Of a DNA stretch of 32,000 nt, positions 7,192 to 28,894 are shown one piece after another. Below the pieces are notes generated by a model. That model saw only the letters and a list, made by a program, of their open reading frames with translations, did no database searches and was not told the origin of the DNA. The position numbers and the translations under genes are program-made. How positions within the stretch are numbered: the first letter of the stretch is position 1; each line of letters starts with the position of its first letter. This DNA is from Longivirga aurantiaca (GTDB lineage: Bacteria > Actinomycetota > Actinomycetes > S36-B12 > CAIYMF01): the NCBI RefSeq assembly GCF_042660085.1, contig NZ_JBHSTI010000002.1:390001-422000 (forward strand), in the 5' to 3' direction.

Positions 7192-7207
7192 CTATAAACG
7201 TTTCCAA
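7192..7207. promoter_or_regulatory. candidate operator, copy a of the 16-bp pseudo-palindromic box (ctatAAACGTTTCcaa)
   Basis: AAACGTTT core palindrome with a central CG. On the minus strand it lies immediately downstream of the putative -10. See the finding on the recurrent box. Confidence 0.35.
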
Positions 7208-9137: not shown

Positions 9138-9179
9138 TCCGAGGGCCATTGCGGTCCCGCGCGGCGAGCGACTACGGTT

Positions 9180-9195
9180 GATGAAACGTATCTAC
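9180..9195. promoter_or_regulatory. candidate operator, copy b of the 16-bp box (gatgAAACGTATCTAC)
   Basis: It carries the exact 12-mer AAACGTATCTAC (9184-9195), also present at 10175-10186. It sits just after a putative promoter: TTGCGG 9149-9154, 18-nt spacer, TACGGT 9173-9178. Confidence 0.4.
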
Positions 9196-9207
9196 AAAGG
9201 GAGCGTT

Positions 9208-10152
9208 GTGGTCGACCAGCATCCGGCATCAACTGTGGTCGTGGTCGGCGCGCTCAACGTCGACGCCGTCGTACGGGCGCCGCGGCTGCCTGCTCCCGGA
9301 GAGACGGTGGTCGGGCCGCATGTCACCTGGCACGGCGGGGGTAAGGGCGCCAATGCCGCGGTGGCCGCGGCGCGTGCCGGGGCTCGCACCCAGCTCATCG
9401 GCGCTGTCGGCGCCGATGACCAGGGCCGGTCCACGCTGCGCGAGCTGGCAGCCGAGGGAGTGGACATCGGTGGCGTCGCCAGCCTGGACGACTCCGCCAC
9501 CGGGGTGGCGCTGATCGTGGTCGACGCCCAGGCCGAGAACCAGATCGCCGTGGGCCTCGGTGCCAACGCGGACCTCACGCCCGAGTACGTCGCACGCGCG
9601 CTCGAGGGCCGGCTCCACGCGGCCGGGTGCGTCCTGGTCAGCACCGAGATCACCCCGGGCGCGGTCATCGCCGCCGTCGATGCGGCGTCGCGTGCTGGCG
9701 TGCCGGTGATCCTGAACCCGGCGCCCGTGATCGCCGCAGTCGCCCGCTGCATCAGTGGTGCCACCGTGATCACGCCGAACGAGTCCGAGGCGGACCTGCT
9801 CCTCGAGCTGATCGGCGGCAGCACGGGAGGACGTCGCGAAGAGCGGTGGAGCGAGCTGGCCGAGCGTGCCGCAGCGTCCGTCGTGGTCACGCTCGGATCG
9901 GAGGGCGTGGCGGTGGTGCAGCCGGGGGAGCCGGTGGTGGTGGTCCCCGCCCGCTCCGTGAGCGCGGTCGACACGACCGGTGCGGGGGACACGTTCAACG
10001 GCGTCCTCGCCGCGCGGGTGGCCGCGGGCGACGACCTGAGGGAGGCCGTGGCCTTCGCGGTGGCTGCGGCGAGCCTCTCGGTGACGCGCGCCGGCGCTCG
10101 TGGGGGCATGCCGACCTTCGATGCCATCGCCGCGTTCAGCGGACGCGGTTGA
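9208..10152 (+). CDS. rbsK: ribokinase
   Basis: PfkB-family motifs: GALNVDAVV, GGKGANAAVAAARAG, DTTGAGDTFNG. I prefer GTG 9208 (AAGGGAG 4 nt upstream) over the track start at 9178, which would place the AT-rich box inside the coding sequence. Confidence 0.85.
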   Translation: MVDQHPASTVVVVGALNVDAVVRAPRLPAPGETVVGPHVTWHGGGKGANAAVAAARAGARTQLIGAVGADDQGRSTLRELAAEGVDIGGVASLDDSATGVALIVVDAQAENQIAVGLGANADLTPEYVARALEGRLHAAGCVLVSTEITPGAVIAAVDAASRAGVPVILNPAPVIAAVARCISGATVITPNESEADLLLELIGGSTGGRREERWSELAERAAASVVVTLGSEGVAVVQPGEPVVVVPARSVSAVDTTGAGDTFNGVLAARVAAGDDLREAVAFAVAAASLSVTRAGARGGMPTFDAIAAFSGRG

Positions 10153-10186
10153 CACGTCGCCGCACGCATACTATAAACGTATCTAC
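10149..10186 (+). promoter_or_regulatory. putative promoter plus operator copy c upstream of the cupin operon
   Basis: TTGACA (10149-10154, overlapping the rbsK stop), 17-nt spacer, TATAAA (10172-10177). Box ctatAAACGTATCTAC at 10171-10186 overlaps the -10 and the predicted transcription start. Confidence 0.4.
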
Positions 10187-10245
10187 TCTGACCCGTGCCA
10201 GGTGAGCTGCGGGCATCGTCCGCGCCGAGCGATCAGGAGACCGCC

Positions 10246-10698
10246 ATGAGCCAGTACGACCCCGATGCGCCGATGGCGCAGAGGTACCCGCGGGTCACCA
10301 CGCCCGAGCAGATGGATGCCGCGCCGCGGCTGAAGTTCAACGACGGGATCTACACCAACATCTTCATCTCGGCCGAGGGCGAGGACGCCCGCTACTTCCG
10401 GCACGGCATCTGCTACGCCGAGCCCGGTCACAAGACCTATCGCTGGGAGCAGTGGGGCTTCGACGAGTCGCACTTCGTCCTCGAGGGCAAGGTGCGCCTG
10501 CGGGTCGAGGACGCCGACGGGCGCGTCATCTACCTCGAGGCGACGGCGGGCGAGCACATCTTCCTGCCGGCCGGCTACATCTACGAGCTCGAGGACACCG
10601 GTGGCATGAAGTTCTACTGGACCAGCGGGCCGTCCAACCGCAACGGCCTCGTCGAGGTCCCCGACTACAGCGCGACGCTGCGCGCGCAGAGGAGCTGA
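10246..10698 (+). CDS. cupin-domain protein, unknown function
   Basis: ATG 10246 preceded by AGGAGA. The 150-aa product has a cupin-like beta-barrel core (FVLEGKVRLRVEDADGRVIYLEATAGEHIFLPAGY). Confidence 0.7.
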   Translation: MSQYDPDAPMAQRYPRVTTPEQMDAAPRLKFNDGIYTNIFISAEGEDARYFRHGICYAEPGHKTYRWEQWGFDESHFVLEGKVRLRVEDADGRVIYLEATAGEHIFLPAGYIYELEDTGGMKFYWTSGPSNRNGLVEVPDYSATLRAQRS

Positions 10699-10703
10699 CC
10701 CCG

Positions 10704-11219
10704 ATGGCGATCACTGCCAGCACGACCAACCCGTTGAAGGGGGCCAAGCGCTGGGCCTACCTGGCGCGTGCCACGACGATCCGCGTCGCGACCGTCAACG
10801 ACGACGGCTCCCTCTACCTGACTCCGCTCTGGTTCGTCGTGCGCGATCAGCGCATCTTCCTGCCGCTCGACGCCGGCGGCCGTCACGGCAAGAACGGCAC
10901 GTCGGGCCGCCCCGTCTCGGCGCTGGTCGACTCCGGCGACGAGTTCGTGACCGTCGCGGGCGTCCGGATCCTGGGCCGGCTCGAGGCCGTCAACGACGAG
11001 AACGCCCACGGCGAGCTCGAGGCCCTCATGTTCGACAAGTACTTCTACGAGGGCCACCCCTACGCCCACCGCTACTTCGAGTTCGGCGAGTTCGCCGGTC
11101 GCGTCTACTACGAGCTCGTCGTCGACAAGCTCATCGGGTGGGACTCGCGCGAGACGACGGTGTCGGACACGCCCGAACGGCGGAGCCTGCCCGCCCACAT
11201 CGGCGATCGGCTGGTGTGA
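10704..11219 (+). CDS. pyridoxamine 5'-phosphate oxidase-like split-barrel flavin/deazaflavin-binding protein
   Basis: 171-aa ORF starting 5 nt after the cupin stop. ATTIRVATVNDDGSLYLTPLWFV is typical of the PNPOx-like/FDOR fold. The cofactor (FMN or F420) cannot be told from sequence. Confidence 0.75.
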   Translation: MAITASTTNPLKGAKRWAYLARATTIRVATVNDDGSLYLTPLWFVVRDQRIFLPLDAGGRHGKNGTSGRPVSALVDSGDEFVTVAGVRILGRLEAVNDENAHGELEALMFDKYFYEGHPYAHRYFEFGEFAGRVYYELVVDKLIGWDSRETTVSDTPERRSLPAHIGDRLV

Positions 11220-11221
11220 GC

Positions 11222-11980
11222 ATGGCAACGGGGCTTCGGGTCCTGGTCGTCGGAGAGTCCTGGATCAAGCACACGATCCACATGAAGGGCTTCGACCAGT
11301 TCCACAACACGTCCTACGAGGAAGGCGCCGGCGTCTTCCTCGATGCGCTGGACGCGAGCGGGTTCGACGTGACGTACATCCGTGCGCACGAGGTCTCGTC
11401 GCGCTTCCCCACCACGATGGAGGAGCTCCAGGCTTTCGACGTGGTCGTGGTGAGCGACGTCGGGTCGAACACCTTCCTGCTCTGCGACGAGACGTTCCTC
11501 AGGTCGGAGAGGGCTGTGAACCGGCTCGAGCTCCTGGCCGACTACGTCCGCGCAGGCGGAGGGCTCGTCATGGTCGGCGGCTACCTCACGTTCACGGGCA
11601 TCGACGGCAAGGGTCGCTACGGGATGTCGCCGCTGGCTGACGTGCTTCCGTGCACCCTCATGCCGACCGACGATCGCGTGGAGAAGCCGCAGGGTGTGAC
11701 GCCGTCGTTCGACGACCTCGCCCACCCGCTGCTCTCCGCAGCACCCACGCCCTGGCCCGACCTGCTGGGCTACAACCGCATGACCCCGAACCCGGGAACC
11801 GACGTCGTGGCGCGGGTAGGTGATGACCCGCTGGTCGTTCTGGGACAGGTAGAGTCGGGCCGCTCGGCCGTCTTCACGTCGGACCTCGCACCTCACTGGG
11901 CGCCACCGGAGTTCCTCGAATGGTCCGGGTACCGCCCCCTGTGGGAGGCGTTGCTGACCTGGACGGCCGGCAAGTCCTAA
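11222..11980 (+). CDS. class-I glutamine amidotransferase-like protein (DUF1355 / putative GATase family)
   Basis: 252-aa ORF starting 2 nt after the previous stop. VLVVGESW..H.KGFD, VVVVSDVGSNTFLL, GGGLVMVGGYLTFTGIDGKGRY and FTSDLAPHWAP match my memory of the PF07090-type family. Confidence 0.7.
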   Translation: MATGLRVLVVGESWIKHTIHMKGFDQFHNTSYEEGAGVFLDALDASGFDVTYIRAHEVSSRFPTTMEELQAFDVVVVSDVGSNTFLLCDETFLRSERAVNRLELLADYVRAGGGLVMVGGYLTFTGIDGKGRYGMSPLADVLPCTLMPTDDRVEKPQGVTPSFDDLAHPLLSAAPTPWPDLLGYNRMTPNPGTDVVARVGDDPLVVLGQVESGRSAVFTSDLAPHWAPPEFLEWSGYRPLWEALLTWTAGKS

Positions 11981-12006: not shown

Positions 12007-13047
12007 GTGGCCGAGAGCAGGACCAGGCCCACCATGAAGGATGTGGCTCGGCATGCATCCGTCTCGGTGAGCACGGTCTCCTACGTCCTGAACGGGACCG
12101 GCCCGGTCAGCCAGGAGCGCCGCGAGCGGGTGCTCGAGGCCGTCAAGATGCTCAGCTACACGCCCAACGAGGCGGCGCGCGGTCTGCGGCAGCGCAGCGC
12201 GCCGACGGTGGGGCTGATCGTCCCGGACCTGACCAACCCCTACTTCGCCATGATCGCCGAGGGAGTGGAGCGGTACTCCTCGGAACGCGATGCCCTGGTC
12301 GTCCTGTGCGCCCCCGAGGTCGCGGGAACCAGTTCGAGCGAGCCGACGACCACCCGGCTCCTGCGCAGCCAGCGGCTCTCGGGGTGCATCTTCCTGTCCG
12401 GCGCATCGGCCGTGCCGCGGTCGCTCATGGAGCTGACCGAGCTCGGGCCCGTCGTGCTCGTGGACGAGCTGCTCCCCGGCTTCGGCCTCCCCGCAGTCGT
12501 GTCCGACAACCGCTCGGGTGCGCGTGCCGTGGCCGCGCATGTGCTGTCCATGGGTCACCGCCGGGTCGGCATCATCGGCGGCCCCTCGACGTTGTGGTCC
12601 TCGCACCAGAGGCTTGCCGGCTACCGGGAGGCGTTTGCGTCGGGCGGCATCGAGCCGGACTCGATCCCGCTGGAGGTCGGCGACTACCGCCAGGAGTCCG
12701 GCTTCGACGCCGCTCGGCTGCTCATGGCACGCTCCGCGGGCTCCGACCGCATCACCGCGCTCGTGTGCGCCAACGACCTGATGGCCGTCGGCGCCATCGA
12801 GTACCTCCGCTCGCAGTCCCTCCGCGTGCCCGAGGACGTCAGCGTGGTCGGGTTCGACGACGTGCCGTTCGCGCGCTCTCTCACGCCGCGCCTCACCACC
12901 GTGCGACAGCCGGCGCACGACATGGGTGCTCGGGCCGCCGAGCTGCTGTTCTCGCTCCTCGAGAACCCCGACATGTCGCCCCCCGACTACGAGCCGCTCC
13001 CCGTCGAGCTCATGGTCCGCGACTCGGTGCAGCCCCCCCGGGCCTAG
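12007..13047 (+). CDS. LacI-family transcriptional regulator
   Basis: N-terminal HTH (TMKDVARHASVSVSTVSYVLNG, YTPNEAARGLR) and a periplasmic-binding-protein-like effector domain (VVGFDDVPFA). GTG 12007 has GGAAGG 6 nt upstream. Alternative start: ATG 12034. Confidence 0.9.
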   Translation: MAESRTRPTMKDVARHASVSVSTVSYVLNGTGPVSQERRERVLEAVKMLSYTPNEAARGLRQRSAPTVGLIVPDLTNPYFAMIAEGVERYSSERDALVVLCAPEVAGTSSSEPTTTRLLRSQRLSGCIFLSGASAVPRSLMELTELGPVVLVDELLPGFGLPAVVSDNRSGARAVAAHVLSMGHRRVGIIGGPSTLWSSHQRLAGYREAFASGGIEPDSIPLEVGDYRQESGFDAARLLMARSAGSDRITALVCANDLMAVGAIEYLRSQSLRVPEDVSVVGFDDVPFARSLTPRLTTVRQPAHDMGARAAELLFSLLENPDMSPPDYEPLPVELMVRDSVQPPRA

Positions 13048-13251: not shown

Positions 13252-13272
13252 GAGTCGAAATAGAAACGACTC
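13252..13272 (+). promoter_or_regulatory. leader hairpin next to the nadV ribosome-binding site
   Basis: GAGTCG (13252-13257), loop aaatagaaa, CGACTC (13267-13272). It ends 3 nt before the SD AAGGAGG (13276-13282). Confidence 0.35.
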
Positions 13273-13292
13273 AACAAGGAGGTGCCCTCCCC

Positions 13293-14747
13293 ATGGGCCG
13301 GAGTTCTGCGTTCGACAACATCATCATCAACACGGACAACTACAAGCACTGTCACTACTCGCTGTACCCGCCGGGCACCGAGTACGTGTCGAGCTACATC
13401 GAGTCCCGGGGTGGAGAGTTCCCGTCGACGATGTTCGTCGGCCTGCAGGCCTTCATCCGCGAGTACTTGATGCACCCGATCACCCTCGAGGACATCGACG
13501 AGGCGGAGTTCATCGTCCGCGAGCAGGGTATGCACTTCAACCGTGACAACTGGATGGGCATCCTCAACGACCACGGCGGCTTCCTGCCCGTCGAGATCGA
13601 GGCGGTGCCCGAGGGCACGGTCCTGCCGCCCCGCAACGTTCTCGTGCAGCTCATCAACACCGACCCCAAGTACTTCTGGGTGACGAGCTTCTTCGAGACC
13701 GCCCTGCTCCGTGCGGTGTGGTACCCGACGACCATCGGCTCGATCTCGTGGCTGTCCAAGCAGGTCATTCGCGAGGCCCTGGACAAGACGTCGGACAACC
13801 CGCAGCTGCTGCGCTACATGCTCCACGACTACGGCGCACGTGGAGTGAGCTCGCAGCAGTCGGCGTCGCTGGGCGGTCTCGCCCACCTGGTGAACTTCGA
13901 CCAGAGCGACACCGTCCCCGGCATCCTCGCCGCGAAGAAGTACTACAACGCGCAGAAGGTCTCGAACTCCGGTCCCAACTCCGAGCACGCAGGATTCTGC
14001 GCCTGGGGTCAGGAGCACGAGGCCGCGGCCATGAAGAACATGCTCGAGACGTACAAGGACAACGGCGTCGTCCTTCTGCTCACCGACACCTATGACCACG
14101 AGCACGCGGTCAAGCACATCATCGGCGGCGAGCTCAAGGAGATGGTGGAGAACTTCCCCGGGCTCGTGGGCATCCGTCCCGACTCGGGCGACGTCGTCCA
14201 GGTCACGTCGGACACCACCGAGTGGCTGATGGACATCTTCGGCTACACCACGAACAGCAAGGGCTACAAGGTCCTCCCGAACTTCGTGCGCGTCGTGCAG
14301 GGTGACGGTGTCACCTTCTACTCGCTGCCCGAGGTCTACATGGAGATGGAGCGCCGCGGCCTCTCGACCGAGAACGCCGTGTTCGGCATGGGTGGGGGCC
14401 TGCTCCAGCACCACAACCGTGACACGATGAACTTCGGCCAGAAGGCGAGCTCCGTCCGGATCAACGGCGAGTGGCGGGACATCGCCAAGTCGCCCACGGG
14501 GTCGGAGTTCAAGGTCTCGAAGAAGGGGCGTCTGGCTCTGGTCCACAAGGACGGCGAGTGCGCCACCGTCCTGCGCGACAGCGTCGCGCCGGAGGAGAAC
14601 CTGCTCAAGCCGGTGTTCCGCAACGGGCAGCTGCTCAAGAAGTGGGACTTCACCGAGCTCATCGAGCGGAGCGAGCAGCCCGTGCCGGAGTCGTACTACC
14701 TGGACATCGTCGCGAAGATGCGCGAATCGTTCAACCGGGCGAAGTGA
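13293..14747 (+). CDS. nadV: nicotinamide phosphoribosyltransferase (NAMPT/NadV)
   Basis: 484-aa ORF. The N-terminal NIIINTDNYKHCHY (TDxYK motif), the length, and HDYGARGVSS / RPDSGD segments are typical of NadV. Confidence 0.9.
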   Translation: MGRSSAFDNIIINTDNYKHCHYSLYPPGTEYVSSYIESRGGEFPSTMFVGLQAFIREYLMHPITLEDIDEAEFIVREQGMHFNRDNWMGILNDHGGFLPVEIEAVPEGTVLPPRNVLVQLINTDPKYFWVTSFFETALLRAVWYPTTIGSISWLSKQVIREALDKTSDNPQLLRYMLHDYGARGVSSQQSASLGGLAHLVNFDQSDTVPGILAAKKYYNAQKVSNSGPNSEHAGFCAWGQEHEAAAMKNMLETYKDNGVVLLLTDTYDHEHAVKHIIGGELKEMVENFPGLVGIRPDSGDVVQVTSDTTEWLMDIFGYTTNSKGYKVLPNFVRVVQGDGVTFYSLPEVYMEMERRGLSTENAVFGMGGGLLQHHNRDTMNFGQKASSVRINGEWRDIAKSPTGSEFKVSKKGRLALVHKDGECATVLRDSVAPEENLLKPVFRNGQLLKKWDFTELIERSEQPVPESYYLDIVAKMRESFNRAK

Positions 14748-14758
14748 GCAGCTAGCGG

Positions 14759-15436
14759 ATGACTGACGACGGAACCGGCCAGCAGGCGCGCGCGCTCCAC
14801 GTCTTCGACATGGACGGCACCCTGCTGGCCGGCTCCGCGTGCTTGGATCTCTCAGCCCGTGCCGGCTACCTCTCCTCGGTGGAGGAGATGGAGGACGCGT
14901 GGGGCCGCGGCGAGATCGGTCACGTGGAGTTCTACGACCTGCTGATCCCGCTGTGGTCCGAGCTCACTCACGAGGATGTCGACGAGACCTTCGCCAAGGC
15001 GGGGTGGATCGAGGGTCTTCGCGAGGTGCTCGCGGACATCCGCAGCCGTGGTGAGCGCAGCGCCGTCGTCTCCCTGTCGCCGCACTTCTTCGTGCGGCGG
15101 CTGCAGGCATGGGGCCTCGACTACGCCTACGGCGCCGGAGTCGAGATCGGGGAACCGGTTCTCCCAGAACGGGTGTACGTCCCCGAGACCAAGGTGACCG
15201 TCGTGGCCGACCTCCTCGCAGAGCTGCGGCTCGGCGCGGACCGGTGCGTCGTGTACGGGGACTCGTCCTCCGATGTTCCGCTCTTCCAGCGGTTCCCCAA
15301 CAGCATCGCCGTCAATGCGAGCAGCTCCTTGCTGCCCTTCGCGCACGTCACCTACGAAGGCCCGGACCTCGCGAGCGCGTACGCCCTCGGGCGTTCGCTG
15401 CTGGGGGACGAGGCCGAGGAGCCCCCCCAGCCATGA
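14759..15436 (+). CDS. HAD-superfamily hydrolase (HAD-IB / phosphoserine-phosphatase-like), substrate unknown
   Basis: 225-aa ORF with motif I FDMDGTLL, motif II-like VVSLSP, and motif IV YGDSSSDVPLF. Confidence 0.8.
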   Translation: MTDDGTGQQARALHVFDMDGTLLAGSACLDLSARAGYLSSVEEMEDAWGRGEIGHVEFYDLLIPLWSELTHEDVDETFAKAGWIEGLREVLADIRSRGERSAVVSLSPHFFVRRLQAWGLDYAYGAGVEIGEPVLPERVYVPETKVTVVADLLAELRLGADRCVVYGDSSSDVPLFQRFPNSIAVNASSSLLPFAHVTYEGPDLASAYALGRSLLGDEAEEPPQP

Positions 15437-16461
15437 GCCCGACCAGCAGCGCCACGCTGCTCCCACCCGGCCACCGGATCCCCGTCGCGCACCGCGACAT
15501 GAAGATCTTCGGAGGGCGGTCGAACCCCCGGCTGGCGGAGGAGATCGGGGTCCGTCTCGGTGTCGGTCTCAGCCCCGTGACGCTGCGCTCGTTCTCCGGC
15601 GGGGAGGTCTACTGCCGATACGAGGAGTCGATCCGCGGCTCGGACGTCTTCCTCATCCAGTCGCTGAGCGCGAACGCCGAGTCGGGCATCGGGACGAACG
15701 ATGCTCTGGCAGAGCTGCTCGTGATGATCGATGCAGCGAAGGGTGCCAGCGCGCACAGGGTGACCGCGGTCGTCCCATGGTTCGGCTACTCGCGCCAGGA
15801 CAAGAAGAGCGCAGCCCGCGAACCGATCAGCGCCCGCCTGATGGCGCGGATCCTGGAAGCCTCAGGCGCCGACCGCGTGCTGACGATGGATCTGCACGCA
15901 CCACAGATCCAGGGGATGTTCCAGATCCCGGTGGATCACATGACTGCCTCGTTGGCGCTCAGCGACCACATCCTGCAGCTGCAGCTCCAGGACGACCTCG
16001 TGGTGGTCGCCCCGGATGCTGGTCGCGGCAAGCATGCACGGGCGTTCGCGACCATGGTGGGTGCAGGCTTCGCCATCCTGGACAAGCAGCGGCCGGCCCA
16101 GCAGCAGGCCGAGATCGGTTACGTCATCGGAGACGTCGAAGGCAAGACCGCGATCGTGGTCGACGACATCATCGACACTGCCGGCACCATCCGGGCGGCG
16201 GCAGACGCGGTGCTCGGTGCGGGGGCCAACCGCGTCCATGTGGTTGCCACGCACGGGGTCTTCAGCGGCAAGGCGTACGAGAACATCGCCTCGTCGGGCG
16301 TCGAGCGGTTCTTCGTGACCGACACGATCGCCGCACCGCCCGGCGTTCCGCCGAACGTCGAGATCATCTCGTGCGCCGACGTGCTCGCCGAGTCGATGGT
16401 GCAGATCTTCACGTGCGGATCGGTGAGCGCGGTCTTCCGAGGCCACAACCATGTCTACTGA
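15433..16461 (+). CDS. prs: ribose-phosphate pyrophosphokinase (PRPP synthase)
   Basis: ATG 15433 overlaps the HAD stop (ATGA). Canonical class I Prs motifs: FSGGEV, PWFGYSRQDKK, MDLHAPQIQGMFQIPVDH, VVDDIIDTAGT, THGVFSG. Alternative start: ATG 15499 (MKIFGG). Confidence 0.9.
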   Translation: MSPTSSATLLPPGHRIPVAHRDMKIFGGRSNPRLAEEIGVRLGVGLSPVTLRSFSGGEVYCRYEESIRGSDVFLIQSLSANAESGIGTNDALAELLVMIDAAKGASAHRVTAVVPWFGYSRQDKKSAAREPISARLMARILEASGADRVLTMDLHAPQIQGMFQIPVDHMTASLALSDHILQLQLQDDLVVVAPDAGRGKHARAFATMVGAGFAILDKQRPAQQQAEIGYVIGDVEGKTAIVVDDIIDTAGTIRAAADAVLGAGANRVHVVATHGVFSGKAYENIASSGVERFFVTDTIAAPPGVPPNVEIISCADVLAESMVQIFTCGSVSAVFRGHNHVY

Positions 16462-16662
16462 CCCGGCGGATGCAGCTCGCCACGTAGGTCGCAGCAGCCA
16501 CCCTCCCCTCGTGGCCGTCCGTCCGGCCATGCCCGGCCTGGGACTGGCCCTCCTGGCCGTGCGTGGTGCCGCCACTGCGTCGCCAGCGCGGGCCCGACTG
16601 TTCCCAGCCATGGCTCTGGGGCTGCGCCGTCGTCGCGCCGTCCGACCGGGGTGACCCCCGCG

Positions 16663-17613
16663 ATGAGGCTCGTGATCGACACCGACACGGCGAGCGACGA
16701 CGCCGTCGCGCTGATGCTCGCGTCAGCGGCAGACGTGACTATCGAGGCGGTCACGATCGTCGCCGGCAACGTCCCCGTGGAGCTCGGCAGCAGGAACGCC
16801 CTGTCCGCTCTCGAGTTCTGGGGCGTCGACGTCCCGGTCTACGTCGGTGAGACGCGACCGCTCGCCCGCCCGCTCCAGACTGCCCAGCACGTTCACGGTC
16901 CTGACGGGATGGGCGACTCGCAGCTCCCCGCTCCTCGGCGGGTGCCGCGTGACCCGGACGCGGTCGACGTCCTCGTCGACATCCCCACCCGTGACCCCGG
17001 CGCCGTCACCCTCGTGACGCTCGGTCCCTTCACGAACCTCGCCAGAGCCCTCGAGCGCGACCCGGCATGTCTAGGGAAGTACCGGGCCATCTACTGCATG
17101 GCCGGCACCCTCGGCCGGGGCAACATCACGCAGCAGGCGGAGTACAACCTCTGGTGCGACCCTGAGGCCGCCGCCCTCGTGCTGGATTCCGGGATCCCGT
17201 TGACCTTCATCGGCTGTGACGCCGCGCGGGACTTCACCGGACTCTCGAGCGACCGGCTCGATCGTTGGCATTCGCTGGCGTCACCGCGCGCCGACTTCGC
17301 CATCGCCGTCACGCGCGGGGCGGTGCGCTGGTACAGCGACCGCGGCCTGCGCGGCAGCGCCGACCTCCCCGATCCCCTCGCGATGGCGGTGGCGCTGGAT
17401 CCAGCCATCGTGACACGGTCGGAGACCGTCCATGCGAGCGTCGCACTCGACGACAGCCTGCGCGGGAAGCTGGTGATCCATCCGGACTCCGCGCCGGTTC
17501 GCAGGTCAGTGACGATGGTGACCGAGGTGGACGCAGACGCGTTCTGGTCGAGGGTCGACTCCATGGTCGCGGGCCACGATGAGCCCTCCGCCTCCGGCGG
17601 CGCTACCCGCTGA
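16663..17613 (+). CDS. nucleoside hydrolase (inosine/uridine-preferring family)
   Basis: N-terminal aspartate cluster MRLVIDTDTASDDAVALMLA (DxDxxxDD) and the expected length. Alternative start: GTG 16651. Confidence 0.85.
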   Translation: MRLVIDTDTASDDAVALMLASAADVTIEAVTIVAGNVPVELGSRNALSALEFWGVDVPVYVGETRPLARPLQTAQHVHGPDGMGDSQLPAPRRVPRDPDAVDVLVDIPTRDPGAVTLVTLGPFTNLARALERDPACLGKYRAIYCMAGTLGRGNITQQAEYNLWCDPEAAALVLDSGIPLTFIGCDAARDFTGLSSDRLDRWHSLASPRADFAIAVTRGAVRWYSDRGLRGSADLPDPLAMAVALDPAIVTRSETVHASVALDDSLRGKLVIHPDSAPVRRSVTMVTEVDADAFWSRVDSMVAGHDEPSASGGATR

Positions 17614-18188: not shown

Positions 18189-19190
18189 ATGACGATCCGC
18201 ATCGGGTACAAGGCCTCTGCCGAGCAGTTCGACCCGAGGGAGCTGCTCCAGGTCTCCGTGGTGGCGGAGGAGTCGGGCTTCGACGTGGTGGGGGTGTCGG
18301 ACCACTTCCAGCCGTGGCGGCACAACGGCGGTCACTCGCCGGCGGTGATCCCGTGGCTCGGCGCGATGACCCAGGCGACGAGTCGCGTCGCCCTCGGCAC
18401 GAGCGTGATGACGCCGATGCTCCGGTACCACCCCTCGATCGTCGCCCAGTCGTTCGCGACGTTGAACTCGCTCGCACCGGGTCGCATCTTCCTCGGGATC
18501 GGGACGGGCGAGGCGATGAACGAGGTGCCGGCGACGGGTGCGGAGTTCCCGGCGCCCAAGGAGAGGCGGCTGCGCATGGCCGAGGCGGTCGAGCTCATGC
18601 GGCGGTTGTGGTCGGAGGAGCGGGTGGACTTCGAAGGCGAGTACTACCGCACGGAGAAGGCCACGGTGTACGACCGGCCGGAGACGCCGATCCCGGTGTT
18701 CTTCGCGGCATCCGGACCGCTGGCAGCCAAGCTCGCCGGTCGGACGGGTGACGGCTTCATCTGCACGAGCGGCAAGGCCCCCGAGCTGTACGAGACGTTG
18801 CTGGAGAACGTCGCTGCCGGTGCGACCGAGGCTGGGCGCGACGTCAGCGACATCCGGCGGATGATCGAGGTCAAGGTCTCGTACGACCATGATCTGGACT
18901 ACGCATACGAAGCGTGCGGGTTCTGGGCTGCGCTCTCGCTCTCGAGCGAGCAGAAGACGGGCATCGAGGATCCGCTGGAGATGGAGCGGGTCGCGGACGC
19001 CAACATCGCCAACGCGCACACCCGCTTCATCGTGTCGAACGATCCCGAAGAGGTGGCGGCTCGCATCAAGCCGTACCTCGACCTGGGGTTCCAGGACCTC
19101 GTCATCCATGCGCCGGGGCACGACCAGCGTCGGTTCCTGAAGCAGTTCAGCGCCGACGTGCTGCCTCTGCTGCGGGGTGCGGGGAGTTGA
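18189..19190 (+). CDS. fgd: F420-dependent glucose-6-phosphate dehydrogenase
   Basis: 333-aa ORF with GAGGAG upstream. It looks colinear with my memory of M. tuberculosis Fgd1: GYKASAEQF.PRELL, SDHFQPWRH.GGH, GTGEAMNE, GDGFICTSGK, HAPGHDQRRFL. Confidence 0.9.
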   Translation: MTIRIGYKASAEQFDPRELLQVSVVAEESGFDVVGVSDHFQPWRHNGGHSPAVIPWLGAMTQATSRVALGTSVMTPMLRYHPSIVAQSFATLNSLAPGRIFLGIGTGEAMNEVPATGAEFPAPKERRLRMAEAVELMRRLWSEERVDFEGEYYRTEKATVYDRPETPIPVFFAASGPLAAKLAGRTGDGFICTSGKAPELYETLLENVAAGATEAGRDVSDIRRMIEVKVSYDHDLDYAYEACGFWAALSLSSEQKTGIEDPLEMERVADANIANAHTRFIVSNDPEEVAARIKPYLDLGFQDLVIHAPGHDQRRFLKQFSADVLPLLRGAGS

Positions 19191-20674
19191 CTCCGACGCC
19201 GCCTGCGGATGGCGTCCTCGGCCGGGAGCCGGTCGACGTCCTCCGTGCCTGGCGCCTCGGTCGCGGCTGGGCTCCGCACGACGCCGCTCGCAGTCTCGGC
19301 GCGAGCACCGCGGAGTACCTCGCGTGGGAGTCGGGGACGGAGGAGATCCCCGATGCCGCGCGGCTCCTGCTGGGCCGTCGCCTCGGCGTACCGGCGTCCG
19401 CCGCACTGCCGACCGCCGCGCGCCGGTGGCGCGTCGATGCCGCGGCAGAGGACGGATGCGCCAGCCTGGCGTCGTTGCTCGCCTCATGGCGCGCGAACGA
19501 GGGGCTCACCCAGAGTGCCGCAGCGGGTCTGCTGGGGGTGTCCTCCGGCGCGGTGGGCCGCTGGGAGCGTGGGACGGTTCCCTCCCCCCAGGTCCTGGCC
19601 CGGCTGGCGGCGCTGTGGTCGGTGGACCGGGCGGTGCTGCGCGCAGCTGCCGGCCCCGATCCGATTCGCCGTGCGTCCAGCACCGAGAGCAGCGACGCCA
19701 CCCCGCTGGTGCTGGCCCGCCTCGACCGGGGCATCAGCCAGGCAGAGCTGGCGCGACGGCTCTCGATCGGCCAGGCGACGCTGTCCCGATGGGAGAGCGG
19801 CGAACGCACACCGCATCGTCTTGACGTGCTGCGGATCGCGCAGGCGCTCGGCATGCCTCCGCAGACGGCGGTCTCACTGTTCGAGGCCTACCGCCCGCAC
19901 CGCCGGCAGTTCGCCGGCAGGCTGCCGGGCTTGGCGCTGCTCCTGGCCGCTCGTGGTGTCGACGAGCAGGCTGCGGCCTGCGTTCTGGGAGTGAGCGATG
20001 CGGCCTTGCGGGACTGGGTGCGGGGTGCTCGTCCAGTCCCGGTGGTTGTCATCGACGGCCTGAGCGCTCTCGTCGGCCAGGACCTGTGGCCGAATCTCCC
20101 GGAGCTGCGCCGACCGCTTCGCACCGCCCCGGCACCGCCTGTCTCGGCGCTGGCGGCGAGGCGGCAGCAGCTCGGGATCACCCAACGTCAGCTGGGCCGT
20201 CACCTGGGAGCCAGCCAGACCACCATCTCCGCGTGGGAGGCGGGGGCACGTCCGGGCAGGTCCTGGCATGCACCCCTCGCGCGGGCCCTGCGATGGGACG
20301 TCGAGAGCCTCTGCTCGGCTCTGGGTGTCAAGGAGCCGACGCGGCCCGACGTGACGAGGTGCGGGCCCGGGGATCTCCCCGCGGTCCTACGGGATCTGCG
20401 CGAGTCGTCAGGCCTGTCGCGCGCCCAGCTCGGCCGATGCGTCGGGGTCGATCCGCGCACCGTCGGCAAGTGGGAGTCCGGCGCTGGCCGACCCTCGGCC
20501 CGGAGCCTGCTCCGGCTGGCTGCGCTGTTCGGAGTGCCGAGCCAGCACCTGGCACGGCTGCGCGGGGGTGGCGGCGAGGCCTGGCGCGCAGACGCCGATC
20601 GCCGGACGGCGGTGCGTGCCCGCCCAGACTCGGTGGGCGCGCGGATCACGGCGCTCGCGGCTCGGGCCGGCTAG
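19187..20674 (+). CDS. protein made of six tandem XRE (Cro/C1)-type helix-turn-helix modules
   Basis: This is the 3' part of track ORF 18914..20674. The only start upstream of module 1 is TTG 19187, which overlaps the fgd stop (TTGA). Six repeats carry the signature W-E/V-x-G: approx. nt 19235-19393, 19463-19639, 19703-19876, 19928-20077, 20138-20320, 20375-20554. Confidence 0.75.
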   Translation: MTPTPPADGVLGREPVDVLRAWRLGRGWAPHDAARSLGASTAEYLAWESGTEEIPDAARLLLGRRLGVPASAALPTAARRWRVDAAAEDGCASLASLLASWRANEGLTQSAAAGLLGVSSGAVGRWERGTVPSPQVLARLAALWSVDRAVLRAAAGPDPIRRASSTESSDATPLVLARLDRGISQAELARRLSIGQATLSRWESGERTPHRLDVLRIAQALGMPPQTAVSLFEAYRPHRRQFAGRLPGLALLLAARGVDEQAAACVLGVSDAALRDWVRGARPVPVVVIDGLSALVGQDLWPNLPELRRPLRTAPAPPVSALAARRQQLGITQRQLGRHLGASQTTISAWEAGARPGRSWHAPLARALRWDVESLCSALGVKEPTRPDVTRCGPGDLPAVLRDLRESSGLSRAQLGRCVGVDPRTVGKWESGAGRPSARSLLRLAALFGVPSQHLARLRGGGGEAWRADADRRTAVRARPDSVGARITALAARAG

Positions 20675-20801
20675 GACGTCGGCTTCGCGGTCGCGGGCCC
20701 CGGCGTCGCGGAGCGCGTGCGGCCCTCCCGCCGACCTGCTGGTTCATGAGGGTGCGCTGGAACGCCCGCACGTTCTAGTCCCGCGTGTGGTTTCTCGCAA
20801 G

Positions 20802-20817
20802 CTTGTTACGTTTCTAC
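20802..20817. promoter_or_regulatory. candidate operator, copy g of the 16-bp box (cttgTTACGTTTCTAC)
   Basis: It shares ACGT(A/T)TCTAC with copies b and c. It lies in the AT-rich region upstream of the Amt-like gene, about 45 bp upstream of the predicted -35. Confidence 0.3.
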
Positions 20818-20828
20818 TATCAGTACGA

Positions 20829-20852
20829 CAGCATTTCCTCTTGAAAATGCTG
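20829..20852. promoter_or_regulatory. 8-bp inverted repeat CAGCATTT / AAATGCTG
   Basis: Arms at 20829-20836 and 20845-20852, with an 8-nt spacer. It ends 6 nt before the -35 hexamer. Confidence 0.35.
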
Positions 20853-20858
20853 AAGGTA

Positions 20859-20886
20859 TTGACGTACTGGACCTGTTCATCATAAT
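20859..20886 (+). promoter_or_regulatory. putative promoter of the Amt-like gene
   Basis: TTGACG (20859-20864), 16-nt spacer, CATAAT (20881-20886). This is the best sigma-70-like match I found in the window, about 80 nt upstream of the ATG. Confidence 0.45.
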
Positions 20887-20968
20887 CGGTTCCACTCGCT
20901 GCACCGCACATCGGAAGGCAGCGCTCGGCGTCCGGACGAAGATCCGGGCCAGACCGCGAGGAGCCCCT

Positions 20969-22369
20969 ATGGAAGCCCCGTTCTTCCCGGACCAGGTGAC
21001 TGATCACCTGTTCCTGCTCGACTTCTTCTACGGAGTCGCCACCGTGTGCCTGATCCTCATCGTGGGAGCGGTGGGCCTGATCGACGGGGGGCTGGTCCGC
21101 CGCAAGAACACCCTCGACAACTGGGTGCAGAAGATCGTCGTGGCCCTAATCGGCGCCGGGTGCATGTGGCTCATCGGCTATGCGATCTGGCAGGTGCAGT
21201 TCTACGAAGCGTTCGGGGTCCCGAACCCGATCTCCTCGGCCATCAAGGACTGGTGGGCGCTCGGGACGAACGCCCAGACGTTCTCCCAGCAGCTCGACCC
21301 CGCCGTGGCGCCTGAGGCCGACGTCTTCCAGATCTTCATGGCCTTCTTCATGGCCTATGCCGCAGTCGGGGCCGTGCTGATCCACTCCGCGGGCCTCGAG
21401 CGCGTCAAGGCTGCGCCGATGTACGTGATGGGGGCCATCGCCGGCGGTCTGGTGATCCCCATCGCGCTCTACTTCACGTGGGGGTCGCTGAGCCCGTTGA
21501 CGAACAACGGACTCCACGACTACATCGGGGTCTACTCCCTGTACATCGTCGTCGGGGTGTGGGCGCTGATCCTGGCCTGGCGGGCCGGTCCCCGGCTCGG
21601 AGCCTTCGCACCTCACGACAGGACGATGGGTCCGATCCCGCACAACTTCGGGTTCTCCGGGCTCGGCATCGCGCTGCTCATGTTCGCTGCGCCGTTCGCC
21701 TTCCTCGGCTGCGGCTACTGGATCGGTGATCTTGGCTACTTCGGCATCTCGATGACCACCAGCGGGTTCGGCATCGCCATGCTCAACGTCTTCGTGAGCT
21801 ACATCGGCGGCGGGCTCGCGGGTGCGCTGATCGCGTACCGCACCAAGAACCCGCTCTTCGCGCTGATCGGTGTGGCCGCCGGCTACATCAGCGCCGGCGC
21901 GTGCCTCGACATCGCCAAGCCGTGGCAGACCTTCGTGGTGTCGTTCGTCGGGACGTTCGTCGTCTTCGGCACCTACAAGCTGCTCCACCGGTTGCGCATC
22001 GACGACAAGAAGATCGTGCCGCTGGCCCTCGGGGGCGGCATCTTCGGCGCGCTCGCCGCGGGCGTGGTCGGGGCCGGCATGAAGACTGGCGGATTCTTCG
22101 GGCTCGAGGGCGAGTACGTCTTTCAGGGCGCGACGATCAGCCTCGGGATGCAGGCGCTGGGCGTCGTCCTCACGGTGGCGTTCGCCGCCGTTACGGGCCT
22201 CATCGTGATCGTCGGCCTCGAGAAGACGATCGGCCTCCGGGTGGAGGAGCACGAGGAGCTCAAGGGTCTCGACGACCACTACTGGGAGACTCCTACGTCG
22301 CCGTACCACGACGAGCCGGTCGAGGTCGTCGACGCACGGGGATCGCGGCCCACCGCCGAGACCGACTAG
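20969..22369 (+). CDS. ammonium transporter (Amt/Mep/Rh) family membrane protein, divergent
   Basis: 466-aa polytopic ORF with GAGGAG upstream. Amt landmarks: GLIDGGLVRRKN, SAGLERVK, FTWG, AGPRLGAF..PHN, RIDDKK, and the C-terminal GLRVEEHEELKGLDDHYWE. The positions I align to AmtB His168 and His318 read Tyr192 and Leu354. Confidence 0.85.
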   Translation: MEAPFFPDQVTDHLFLLDFFYGVATVCLILIVGAVGLIDGGLVRRKNTLDNWVQKIVVALIGAGCMWLIGYAIWQVQFYEAFGVPNPISSAIKDWWALGTNAQTFSQQLDPAVAPEADVFQIFMAFFMAYAAVGAVLIHSAGLERVKAAPMYVMGAIAGGLVIPIALYFTWGSLSPLTNNGLHDYIGVYSLYIVVGVWALILAWRAGPRLGAFAPHDRTMGPIPHNFGFSGLGIALLMFAAPFAFLGCGYWIGDLGYFGISMTTSGFGIAMLNVFVSYIGGGLAGALIAYRTKNPLFALIGVAAGYISAGACLDIAKPWQTFVVSFVGTFVVFGTYKLLHRLRIDDKKIVPLALGGGIFGALAAGVVGAGMKTGGFFGLEGEYVFQGATISLGMQALGVVLTVAFAAVTGLIVIVGLEKTIGLRVEEHEELKGLDDHYWETPTSPYHDEPVEVVDARGSRPTAETD

Positions 22370-22402
22370 CTCGGACGGCGTCGCGGCAAGAAACGCCGCA
22401 CC

Positions 22403-22441
22403 AAGGGAGGGCGGCCGGTCGTGGACCGGCGGCCCTCCTTT
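22403..22441 (+). terminator. intrinsic terminator-like hairpin after the Amt-like gene
   Basis: 18-position stem (one G-G mismatch, one G-U pair) with a 3-nt loop: AAGGGAGGGCGGCCGGTC gtg GACCGGCGGCCCTCCTTT. It starts 34 nt after the stop. The distal arm ends in TTT. Confidence 0.5.
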
Positions 22442-22645
22442 GTCGTCAGGCCCCTGCTCGCAGCCGCGTCCGACCCGGCCGATCCGCGTCGAGCGGAACA
22501 CCGCGGTGGAGGCGTATCGCTGCTCTCCCCAGCAAGGCGGCGTACGGGAGCGAGTGGGTGCTACTCAGGCCCTTGTGCGCCGGCTGCGATGAAGTCGTCC
22601 CAGGCACGCGGCGACCGCCACGTCACGGACGGAGGAAGTGCAGTC

Positions 22646-28261: not shown

Positions 28262-28894
28262 ATGGACCCGCACAAGACCGCAGTCGTGCTCGTGGAGTAC
28301 CAGAACGACTTCGCCAGCGAGGGCGGCGCCCTGCACGGCGCCGTCAAGGACTCGATGGAGTCGACGGGCATGATCGGCCACACCCAGGACGCCGTGGCCG
28401 CCGCCCGGGCCGCGGGGGTCACGATCATCCACGCCCCCATCCAGTTCGCCGAGGGCTACGGCGAGATCACCCGGAACCCGTACGGGATCCTCAAGGGGGT
28501 CGTCGACACGAACGCCTTCGTCAAGGGCAGCTGGGGGGCGGACTTCGTCGGCGAGGTCTCGCCCCAGCCGGGCGACATCGTGCTGGAGGGCAAGCGCGGG
28601 CTCGACGCGTTCGCCAGCACCAACCTCGACTTCATCCTGCGCAGCAAGGGGATCGAGACGGTGGCGCTCAGCGGGTTCCTGACGAACTGCTGCGTCGAGT
28701 CGACCATGCGGTCGGCGTACGAGAAGGGGTTCGAGGTCATCACCCTCACCGACTGCGTCGGGGCCACGAGCGCCGAGGAGCACACGAACGCCATCACCTA
28801 CGACTACCCCATGTTCTCCAAGCCGATGACCGCCGATGAGTTCGCCGAGACCCTCGGCGGTGCGTCGGCCGCCGACACGTCCCGCGCCTACTGA
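28262..28894 (+). CDS. isochorismatase-family cysteine hydrolase
   Basis: 210-aa ORF with GGAGGAA upstream. The catalytic triad context is present: Asp in VEYQNDF, Lys in EGKRGLDAF, Cys in LTNCCVEST. Confidence 0.85.
   Translation: MDPHKTAVVLVEYQNDFASEGGALHGAVKDSMESTGMIGHTQDAVAAARAAGVTIIHAPIQFAEGYGEITRNPYGILKGVVDTNAFVKGSWGADFVGEVSPQPGDIVLEGKRGLDAFASTNLDFILRSKGIETVALSGFLTNCCVESTMRSAYEKGFEVITLTDCVGATSAEEHTNAITYDYPMFSKPMTADEFAETLGGASAADTSRAY

Follow-up and report, generated by a model that had tools for sequence, protein, structure and literature searches.

Can the Amt fold serve a purpose once the histidines that mark its pore have gone, and if so, for which substrate? The question is raised by an open reading frame (ORF) at 20969–22369 (+) in a 32,000-nucleotide stretch of the Longivirga aurantiaca genome (contig NZ_JBHSTI010000002.1, positions 390,001 to 422,000; hereafter the window), which encodes a His-less Amt-family channel of 466 aa with 11 transmembrane (TM) helices. 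The twin-His pair is treated as the signature of Amt/Mep/Rh proteins and as central to their selectivity, a fungal His-to-Glu exchange being the sole natural exception discussed (PMC10433425, PMC10794816). We propose that this Amt-like protein is a putative facilitator of small, neutral pyridines, which here would mean nicotinamide, a reading to which we give a probability of about 50%. It is favoured because two genomic contexts, NAMPT and the maleamate pathway, converge, the pore is remodelled and the gene carries the operator of the NAMPT regulon. Conduction by the protein and the identity of its substrate are what we infer; its fold, the replaced residues, the subfamily's monophyly, the operator-based regulon membership and the two contexts were found as set out below.

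A divergent Amt protein without pore histidines

Every sequence motif quoted in the original prediction, an earlier reading of the same DNA, was found in the ORF, and its view of the product as a clear Amt protein is borne out. PF00909 (Ammonium_transp), the only Pfam domain in the protein, matches with 131.3 bits against a cut-off of 23.2, aligning residues 20–438 with profile positions 2–393 of 399. The TIGR00836 score is 136.4 bits, below the cut-off of 343.3. Taken together, the two scores indicate a genuine yet strongly divergent Amt. The G+C content at third codon positions (GC3) is 0.87 in frame. An AlphaFold2 monomer model, built with 40 subfamily sequences, has a predicted local distance difference test (pLDDT) score of 91.8 and a predicted template-modelling (pTM) score of 0.91, with 11 TM helices and a short tail after TM11 whose end is disordered. 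With this model as query, Foldseek returned TM-scores of 0.81–0.85 on target length, at 20–22% identity, to Sd-Amt1, Af-Amt-1, EcAmtB and Ks-Amt5, and hhalign against canonical Amt gave a probability of 100% (E 2.6e-44). The genome has a single further PF00909 gene, on contig C8: a canonical amtB that keeps both histidines and stands ahead of glnK and glnD. As originally noted, no glnK/PII gene follows the Amt-like ORF, and the next ORF is unrelated.

Residue numbers of the canonical channel follow a verified E. coli AmtB sequence. Tyr192 (TAC, 21542–21544, +) stands opposite AmtB His168 whether the alignment is made by HMMER pairwise, MAFFT or hhalign, in agreement with the earlier assignment, and tyrosine occupies this position in 120/120 close homologues and in every distant member except one, P0137. 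At the second position, loss of the histidine stands, whereas the proposed replacement by Leu354 does not. Leu354 lies opposite His318 solely when the alignment is gapless or made pairwise by HMMER; in MAFFT auto, MAFFT L-INS-i and hhalign alike, a one-residue gap opens after the DD motif, which brings Ala353 (22025–22027) opposite His318 and pairs Leu354 with the following residue, commonly Leu in canonical Amts. Within the Ala353–Leu354 pair (22025–22030, +), Ala353 is thus the best His318 equivalent. The position-353 column holds Ala, Gly, Thr or Asn in the crown group, never His. TM5 and TM10 of the Amt-like protein contain no histidine, and none of the alignments placed one at either pore position. 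On this evidence, the twin-His mechanism is not available to this divergent paralogue.

Much of the surrounding architecture is retained. The Asp160, Trp148 and Phe103 equivalents are present, the first two as the invariant Asp184 and Trp171; Asp184 and Asp345–Asp346 were found as originally described, and conservation with canonical Amts extends to the PHN and DD motifs and to the C-terminal LRV..E..GLD region. Against this background, a set of positions is conserved within the subfamily, conserved within canonical Amts and different between the two: Gln104 is replaced by Phe127, Phe107 by Tyr130, His145 by Tyr168 and His399 by Trp439. Trp212 becomes Ala241 in L-INS-i and hhalign alike, and the Phe215 equivalent is Ala244 (L-INS-i) or Tyr250 (hhalign). 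The S2 site has been defined as Phe215, Trp212 and His168 (2023 review, PMC10433425), so all three of its residues are replaced. Asp39 was considered as a new pore acid and set aside: Glu occupies this position in most canonical Amts, Tyr32 of E. coli being the exception.

The Ser219 region does read FLGCGYW, as first reported, but the Ser219 equivalent itself is ambiguous and method-dependent, being Cys248 (L-INS-i, and also the modelled end of TM6), Gly256 (hhalign) or Thr264 (MAFFT auto). In the AlphaFold2 model, helix 227–246 is followed by strands 250–252 and 256–258, a β-hairpin inserted after TM6 at the periplasmic mouth. The GCG motif and this hairpin (residues 247–266; 21707–21766, +) replace the canonical NAGS segment that carries Ser219. 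The whole segment, GCGY..G.GYFGIS.TTSG, is nearly invariant in the subfamily, and Gly247, Cys248, Gly249, Tyr257, Gly259, Ser265 and Gly266 are invariant in alignment A1.

A rare and discrete subfamily

A word-indexed homologue search gave 423 matches, the best 120 of which are close homologues (55–94% identity) from Pseudonocardiales, Solirubrobacterales, Patulibacter, Sporichthya and Amycolatopsis acidiphila. In an exhaustive search of 1.8 billion representatives, full-length relatives scored 264–397 bits (36–45% identity) and ordinary Amts at most 83 bits. The subfamily forms one side of a 100/100 branch in a maximum-likelihood tree. A His-less clade, which the original prediction had left to phylogeny, is therefore evident both from this branch and from the score gap. 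P0137, the sole member keeping both histidines, is the first branch, with all His-less members as its sister group (98/94). This position fits a single loss of the histidines, and P0137 is a natural intermediate. Its motifs read FHMNVG and FPFHFLPG, and most subfamily-specific residues are already there, including the change of His145 to Tyr. The subfamily was found in 1/400 sampled genomes of the phylum. By these criteria of score, branching and frequency, the subfamily is discrete, monophyletic and rare.

One of the loci compared, L014 (CAZZVR010000003.1), is titled Burkholderia sp. and carries an actinobacterial-type Amt-like gene and a NadV cluster that are 61–77% identical to those of the window; mis-binning or a wrong label is the probable cause.

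The Amt-like gene carries an operator of the NadV regulon

The claim that the gene has its own promoter and terminator proved sound. A sigma70-type promoter, TTGACG-16-CATAAT, lies at 20859–20886 (+; pattern scan, 1 seen vs 0.1 expected), with −35 and −10 elements identical across the window and the related loci L004 and L007, and a TTGACA-N17-ATAAT architecture recurs in orthologues. The leader (20893–20968, +), with a ribosome-binding site GAGGAG at 20958–20963, is near-invariant among the same three loci. Downstream, the region 22370–22450 folds with −51.6 kcal/mol (z = −4.8), containing a strong terminator hairpin at 22403–22441 (+), its inner stem also found by pattern scan, and then a short U tract. 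The Amt-like gene is monocistronic.

Upstream of this promoter, 167 nt before the ATG, lies an operator box, CTTGTTACGTTTCTAC (20802–20817, +). Boxes of this type form an approximate palindrome, GTAGAAAC|GTTTCTAC, centred on CG, and a central CG is typical of LacI-family operators. A position weight matrix (PWM) trained solely on sites from other genomes was used to scan the whole 3.67 Mb genome, for which the shuffle maximum was 17.8 bits. The box scored 20.9 bits, third-best genome-wide, and all five top matches fall inside the window. The best (10171–10186, +, 23.5 bits) is 5′ of an operon of cupin, PNPOx, GATase1-like and LacI genes; the second (9180–9195, +, 22.3 bits) is at the start of a ribokinase-like PfkB gene; the fourth (7192–7207, +, 19.5 bits) lies in the aldehyde dehydrogenase (Aldedh)/DeoR spacer; and the fifth, a candidate box marginally above the shuffle maximum (13260–13275, +, 18.0 bits), precedes the NAMPT start codon by 33 nt.

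The operator recurs in orthologous loci. The box at 20802 is conserved in L007 and shows one core change in L004. Across 27 Amt loci, a PWM found 44 boxes, against about one in shuffles, located 5′ of the Amt-like gene, in the Amt-like/Aldedh spacer and 5′ of NAMPT. A composite element, TTGACA-N17-ATAAnCnTTTCTAG, stands 5′ of the Amt-like gene at 14/28 loci, with no other occurrence in 984 kb when both strands are counted; in most orthologues its right half-site overlaps the −10 element and start site. Its counterpart in the window would be a degenerate second half-site over the −10/start region (TCATAATCGGTTCCAC, 20880–20895, +), assigned by orthologue comparison. Counting the composite together with separate upstream boxes, 19/28 loci are covered, among them nearly all members of at least 52% identity. 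Where the cluster occurs in gamma- and deltaproteobacteria, its NAMPT and cupin operons are preceded by the same box, and Pseudonocardia acidicola retains this box though the NAMPT cluster is on different contigs. The Amt-like protein is the sole recurrent membrane protein bearing the operator.

Because the top genome-wide matches of the PWM include the Amt-like promoter and the operator recurs in orthologues, we assign the Amt-like gene, on operator evidence, to the adjacent NadV/NAMPT regulon. The presumed operator binder is a LacI-family regulator encoded at 12007–13047 (+; Pfam LacI and Peripla_BP_3), which is present in 70/80 NAMPT loci. The centre of the regulon in the window is an operon (13293–16461, +) of a NadV-type NAMPT (NF006629, 527 bits vs 405), a HAD-IB phosphatase (Pfam) and a PRPP synthetase (Prs frame). 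Control of the GlnR type was considered and rejected: the box contains GTTAC and GTTTC with the wrong spacing, and it travels with the LacI gene into Proteobacteria.

Gene content agrees with the operator. NAMPT, HAD and Prs genes lie within 10 kb in 13/27 relatives' loci, and in three further loci LacI and the hydrolase are present where the contig or flank ends. Two unrelated metagenome-assembled genomes (MAGs) share one order: GntR, acyl-CoA dehydrogenase, CoA-transferase, Amt-like, Aldedh, IU-type nucleoside hydrolase, hypothetical protein, PNPOx, GATase1-like, LacI, PfkB, NAMPT, HAD and Prs. A NadV cluster was confirmed in 19/22 genomes whose Amt-like gene has at least 50% identity, the genes of the other three lying on short contigs. 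NAMPT_N was found in 0/400 other sampled genomes of the phylum, although kinship among genomes makes such co-occurrence statistics overstated. A random-sample phylogenetic profile was impractical given the rarity of the subfamily (1/400) and of NAMPT (0/400), and targeted loci were used.

Relatives in pyridine-ring catabolic operons

A second context is found among deeper relatives. The loci L027–L030 and G223/L115 (45–56% identity, without NadV link), together with L018 (60%), have orthologous neighbours that are 52–80% identical. One of these, of about 350 aa, is a close homologue of NicX (2,5-dihydroxypyridine 5,6-dioxygenase; PDB 7CN3, E 7.6e-96) and is the only one of these partners in L027. 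Another, of the isochorismatase family, is a NicF-like amidase whose nearest structures include 3OT4/3UAO, the latter being NicF maleamate amidohydrolase (PMC5806882). XDH-family Mo-hydroxylase neighbours are closest to quinoline 2-oxidoreductase (592 bits, vs 495 for CO dehydrogenase), with 6-hydroxypseudooxynicotine dehydrogenase and nicotinate dehydrogenase ranking lower. Naming the L030 operon by NCBIfam was attempted and abandoned since no equivalog was reached; the assignment rests on PDB homology to NicX and NicF (PDB 4L07/4L08 is presumably a maleamate amidase).

L030 and L018 have the same order: amidase, NicX, FAD subunit, Mo subunit, Amt-like, CoxD and CoxE. In L030, alpha/beta-hydrolase, Amdase-family and creatininase-like genes lie nearby. 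L018 bridges both contexts, because a NadV-regulon box stands 198 nt before its Amt-like gene and the contig carries a NAMPT cluster some 14 kb further downstream. L027 and L028 share a phosphoenolpyruvate (PEP)-utilizer protein, and L028 also has a separate SRPBCC/CoxG protein. A PEP-utilizer and a separate SRPBCC protein are unusual features of the Ensifer adhaerens 3-hydroxypyridine (3hpd) cluster, in which an ABC system is the presumed importer. L029, a short contig, shows one common neighbour only, a 211–218-aa protein also present in L027 and L028. The Amt-like genes of L018, L030, L028, L115 and L027 are all His-less.

Pore residues differ between these settings. Members inside the Mo-hydroxylase operon (L018, L030) have Gly at 353 (PLGLGCG), NadV-regulon members have Ala (PLALGGG), and 3hpd-like members read PLALGPG with Ser at 248 and Phe at 130. 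The pore residues thus vary with genomic context, possibly as a result of tuning for different substrates.

Proposed function and alternatives

In the mechanism that we propose, the twin-His proton-relay pore has been replaced (His168 to Tyr192, His318 to Ala353), and small residues stand in the S2 site and inner Phe gate: Ala241 for Trp212 and, by L-INS-i, Ala244 for Phe215. At the outer recruitment site, Trp171 is retained and the aromatic character has grown through Phe127, Tyr130 and Tyr168, with Cys248, again by L-INS-i, in place of Ser219. Transcribed alone from a sigma70-type promoter that bears the NadV regulon operator, the gene would yield a channel that supplies nicotinamide to NAMPT in this organism; in deeper-branching relatives, the channel would import the substrate of maleamate-pathway pyridine-ring clusters. 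That no PnuC was found in the genome also speaks for this reading. More broadly, and tentatively, the subfamily could be the first with an Amt/Mep/Rh fold to have an organic N-heterocycle as physiological substrate, a channel-type route for taking up nicotinamide (vitamin B3) and hydroxypyridines. It would have lost the twin histidines once, with recruitment to pyridine-ring catabolic operons coming before that to the NadV salvage regulon.

This bears on two statements of the original prediction. Its suggestion of a different substrate was a reasonable one for a His-less, divergent paralogue. Its view that the neighbourhood tells nothing about that substrate is opposed by the shared NadV operator, the conserved arrangement and the pyridine-catabolic relatives.

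Several observations weigh against the pyridine facilitator. The Amt-like gene lies within 10 kb in just 8/80 NAMPT loci, and is accessory to, and dispensable for, the far more widespread NadV cluster. NadA and NadC are present, providing de novo NAD synthesis. By the general view, nicotinamide passes through membranes without a carrier, and the molecule is much bigger than NH3. Tyr192, bulkier than His, could occlude the pore, and the TM6 correspondence (Phe215, Ser219) varies with the alignment method. No enzyme of the catabolic clusters reached an NCBIfam equivalog cut-off, many of the loci compared are MAG contigs, and the amidases of these clusters release NH3, so that ammonia too is a shared metabolite there. 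With de novo NAD synthesis available, and with neither PnuC nor NicX found in the window's genome, the system would be conditional rather than essential, and ammonia freed by NicF could not account for the link in this organism. Nicotinamide auxotrophy was accordingly rejected as a reason for the gene, NadA and NadC being present. Displacement by another transporter in Amt-less NAMPT clusters was likewise not adopted: NCS1 (4 loci), CNT (1) and MMPL (11) proteins occur there, several of them kilobases away and none with an operator nearby, which gives the idea weak support.

The point about ammonia leads to the alternative that the protein is an atypical NH3/NH4+ channel, channel-like and independent of GlnK, that would conduct hydrated NH4+ (or NH3) and so take up or release the ammonia handled by pyridine-metabolism amidases. 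Asp184 and Trp171 are retained, with an aromatic S1 cage, engineered double-His variants of AmtB and Mep2 become K+/NH4+ channels (PMC9040831, PMC10433425), NicF-type and other amidases of the catabolic contexts free NH3, and a GATase1-like gene is core to the NadV regulon. The genome, however, already has a canonical amtB-glnK-glnD, and the operator is of LacI type, with no sign of nitrogen control. Changes at Ser219, Gln104, His145, Trp212 and Phe215, together with the hairpin, would be needless merely for NH4+, and where clusters for amide or heterocycle catabolism encode transporters, these usually bring in the substrate, as presumed for the ABC system and 3-hydroxypyridine. The window's organism shows no maleamate pathway, and we know of no ammonia-releasing step in NAMPT salvage. 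Because this genome lacks a detectable NicX and salvage frees no known ammonia, pyridine, not ammonia, is the common denominator here, and we consider the ammonium channel less likely, though it is the main rival.

A loss of conduction altogether is distinctly less probable. On that account the protein would be a non-conducting ligand sensor, or a regulatory or structural membrane subunit, like RhCE or the sensor Amts. Tyrosine at the narrowest point could block the pore, as RhCE has its pore blocked at a hydrophobic constriction (bioRxiv 10.1101/2022.02.10.479914), Ks-Amt5 and Sd-Amt1 are among the best sequence and structure matches, and a GGDEF gene lies 1.4 kb downstream. A sensor role had also been raised in the original prediction, but the protein has no fused output or signalling domain, its post-TM11 tail being short with a disordered end, and the GGDEF neighbour recurs beside the two closest relatives, L004 and L007, with weaker GGDEF-domain matches in L008, L012 and L022 at unrelated positions. 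Several large pore residues have become Ala or Gly, suggesting widening over sealing, and pore-lining and mouth residues are strictly conserved across 36–94% identity, which fits a working site. We regard as very unlikely that another small solute is carried, for instance an alkylamine or a gas, with the genomic links reflecting only general co-regulation. Aldedh, acyl-CoA dehydrogenase and CoA-transferase genes do flank the Amt-like gene in several genomes, an operator sits in the Amt-like/Aldedh spacer in 12 loci, and CoxD, CoxE and CoxG accessory genes adjoin in some. Two independent contexts nevertheless meet on pyridine carboxamide and hydroxypyridine chemistry, and the Mo-hydroxylases are nearer to quinoline 2-oxidoreductase than to CO dehydrogenase by the scores given above.

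Comparison with known systems

Literature searches returned no description of a bacterial Amt clade without the histidines, and none of this NadV regulon. The canonical channels E. coli AmtB and A. fulgidus Amt-1 (TIGR00836) share the 11-TM fold (Foldseek TM-score 0.82) with the Amt-like protein, which differs in lacking the pore histidines, in its replaced S2 site, in the changes at Ser219, Gln104 and His145 and in the hairpin after TM6, as well as in having no glnK partner and LacI-type rather than nitrogen control. A natural, clade-wide departure from the twin-His pair that defines a functional subfamily is also known in fungal Mep1/Mep3 (PMC9040831), in which only the first His is changed, to Glu; these proteins are still ammonium transporters and have no link to pyridine metabolism. 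Both histidines are absent from engineered AmtB H168A/H318A and double-His variants of Mep2, which show channel-like NH4+/K+ conduction and have lost the deprotonation mechanism (PMC9040831, PMC10433425). Those variants are laboratory-made and have an otherwise canonical pore, whereas the Amt-like protein has Tyr rather than Ala at position 168 and many more changes.

Non-canonical pores and repurposed Amt modules are also known. The Rh30 proteins (RhCE/RhD) belong to the same superfamily and have a non-canonical pore, but RhCE is a structural, ankyrin-binding subunit of a heterotrimer with a blocked pore (bioRxiv 10.1101/2022.02.10.479914), is animal-specific and is structurally distant (TM-score 0.61–0.75). 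The sensor Amts Ks-Amt5 (PDB 6EU6) and Sd-Amt1 (PDB 8QJ3), the best PDB sequence and structure matches, are repurposed Amt modules that keep the twin-His pair, the Phe gate and S1, and have fused histidine-kinase or HAMP-GGDEF output domains that are absent here. In proposed role, the nearest systems are NiaP, NiaX, NiaY and PnuC, which provide a pyridine precursor for NAD salvage and were found through regulon membership (PMC2330245); their folds are unrelated (MFS, ECF-type S components and SWEET-like), and none is of the Amt family. A further analogy is functional only: AmiS/UreI proteins, of an unrelated 6-TM fold, are channels for small uncharged nitrogen compounds encoded within matching amidase or urease clusters.

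A monophyletic His-less bacterial clade offers a natural experiment on the fold without its histidines, and the basal twin-His member P0137 sharpens the comparison. If pyridines are indeed carried, the substrates of the superfamily would extend from NH3/NH4+ (perhaps CO2) to organic heterocycles, and niacin uptake systems would gain a new class. The protein would also give a handle on a widespread, uncharacterised regulon of LacI, NadV, cupin, PNPOx and GATase1-like proteins. Carriers are available in culture (Amycolatopsis acidiphila, Pseudonocardia acidicola, Patulibacter sp. and Sporichthya brevicatena), so the hypothesis is directly testable.

Organisation of the window and related loci

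Leading up to the Amt-like gene, the window reads Aldedh, DeoR, PfkB, cupin, PNPOx-like, GATase1-like, LacI, NAMPT, HAD-IB, PRPP synthetase, IU-type nucleoside hydrolase, SnoaL, F420-dependent glucose-6-phosphate dehydrogenase (Fgd) and a six-HTH XRE-type protein. The ribokinase-like PfkB, cupin, PNPOx-like and GATase1-like genes of the regulon span 9178–11980 (+); among the 80 NAMPT loci, the GATase1-like gene occurs in 71, cupin in 54 and PNPOx in 49. The IU-type nucleoside hydrolase (16651–17613, +) matches PF01156 with 258 bits, and Fgd (18189–19190, +) scores 436.5 bits against 420 for TIGR03554.

Considered across loci, LacI, GATase1-like, NAMPT and HAD genes make up the core of the NadV regulon (70–75/80 loci), usually with PfkB, cupin, PNPOx-like, Prs and IU-type nucleoside hydrolase genes. 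NAMPT is 75–82% identical across Actinomycetota and gamma- and deltaproteobacterial MAGs, with the operator unchanged; this identity and the common operator suggest horizontal spread of the regulon. Fgd follows Prs in many NadV operons (L006, L008, L031, L044, L062, L097 and others), a linkage that ties F420H2 or pentose-phosphate supply to the regulon, and the PNPOx-like gene has a weak match to an F420-dependent family.

The six-HTH XRE-type protein (19187–20674) is encoded directly upstream of the Amt-like gene and co-directional with it. It adjoins the Amt-like gene solely in L004 and L007 and is not a conserved partner. Six kb downstream, an isochorismatase-family gene (28262–28894), near which no operator was found, has 29–34% identity over 77–80 aa to the NicF-like partners and a BiuH/RutB-type resemblance.

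Further conserved elements surround the Amt-like promoter. TTGAAAATGCTGAAGGTATTGACG, around the −35 element (20829–20852 region), and GGAACGCC..CGTTCTAGTC further upstream (20769–20777 region) are invariant in the window, L004 and L007. A riboswitch in the leader was considered and discarded: Rfam gave no match in the window's leader or in the long L031-type leader, and the fold of the window's leader is not significant (z = −1.0). The long form belongs to a subclade of 52–55% identity (L020–L024 and L031), in which, about 230 nt before the Amt-like start, a leader of about 190 nt lies behind the same promoter and operator. It contains a conserved GGAGCTGACGGG element and a hairpin that sequesters the Shine–Dalgarno sequence (CTACTCGGAGGAGTAG), and could be an uncharacterised regulatory RNA.

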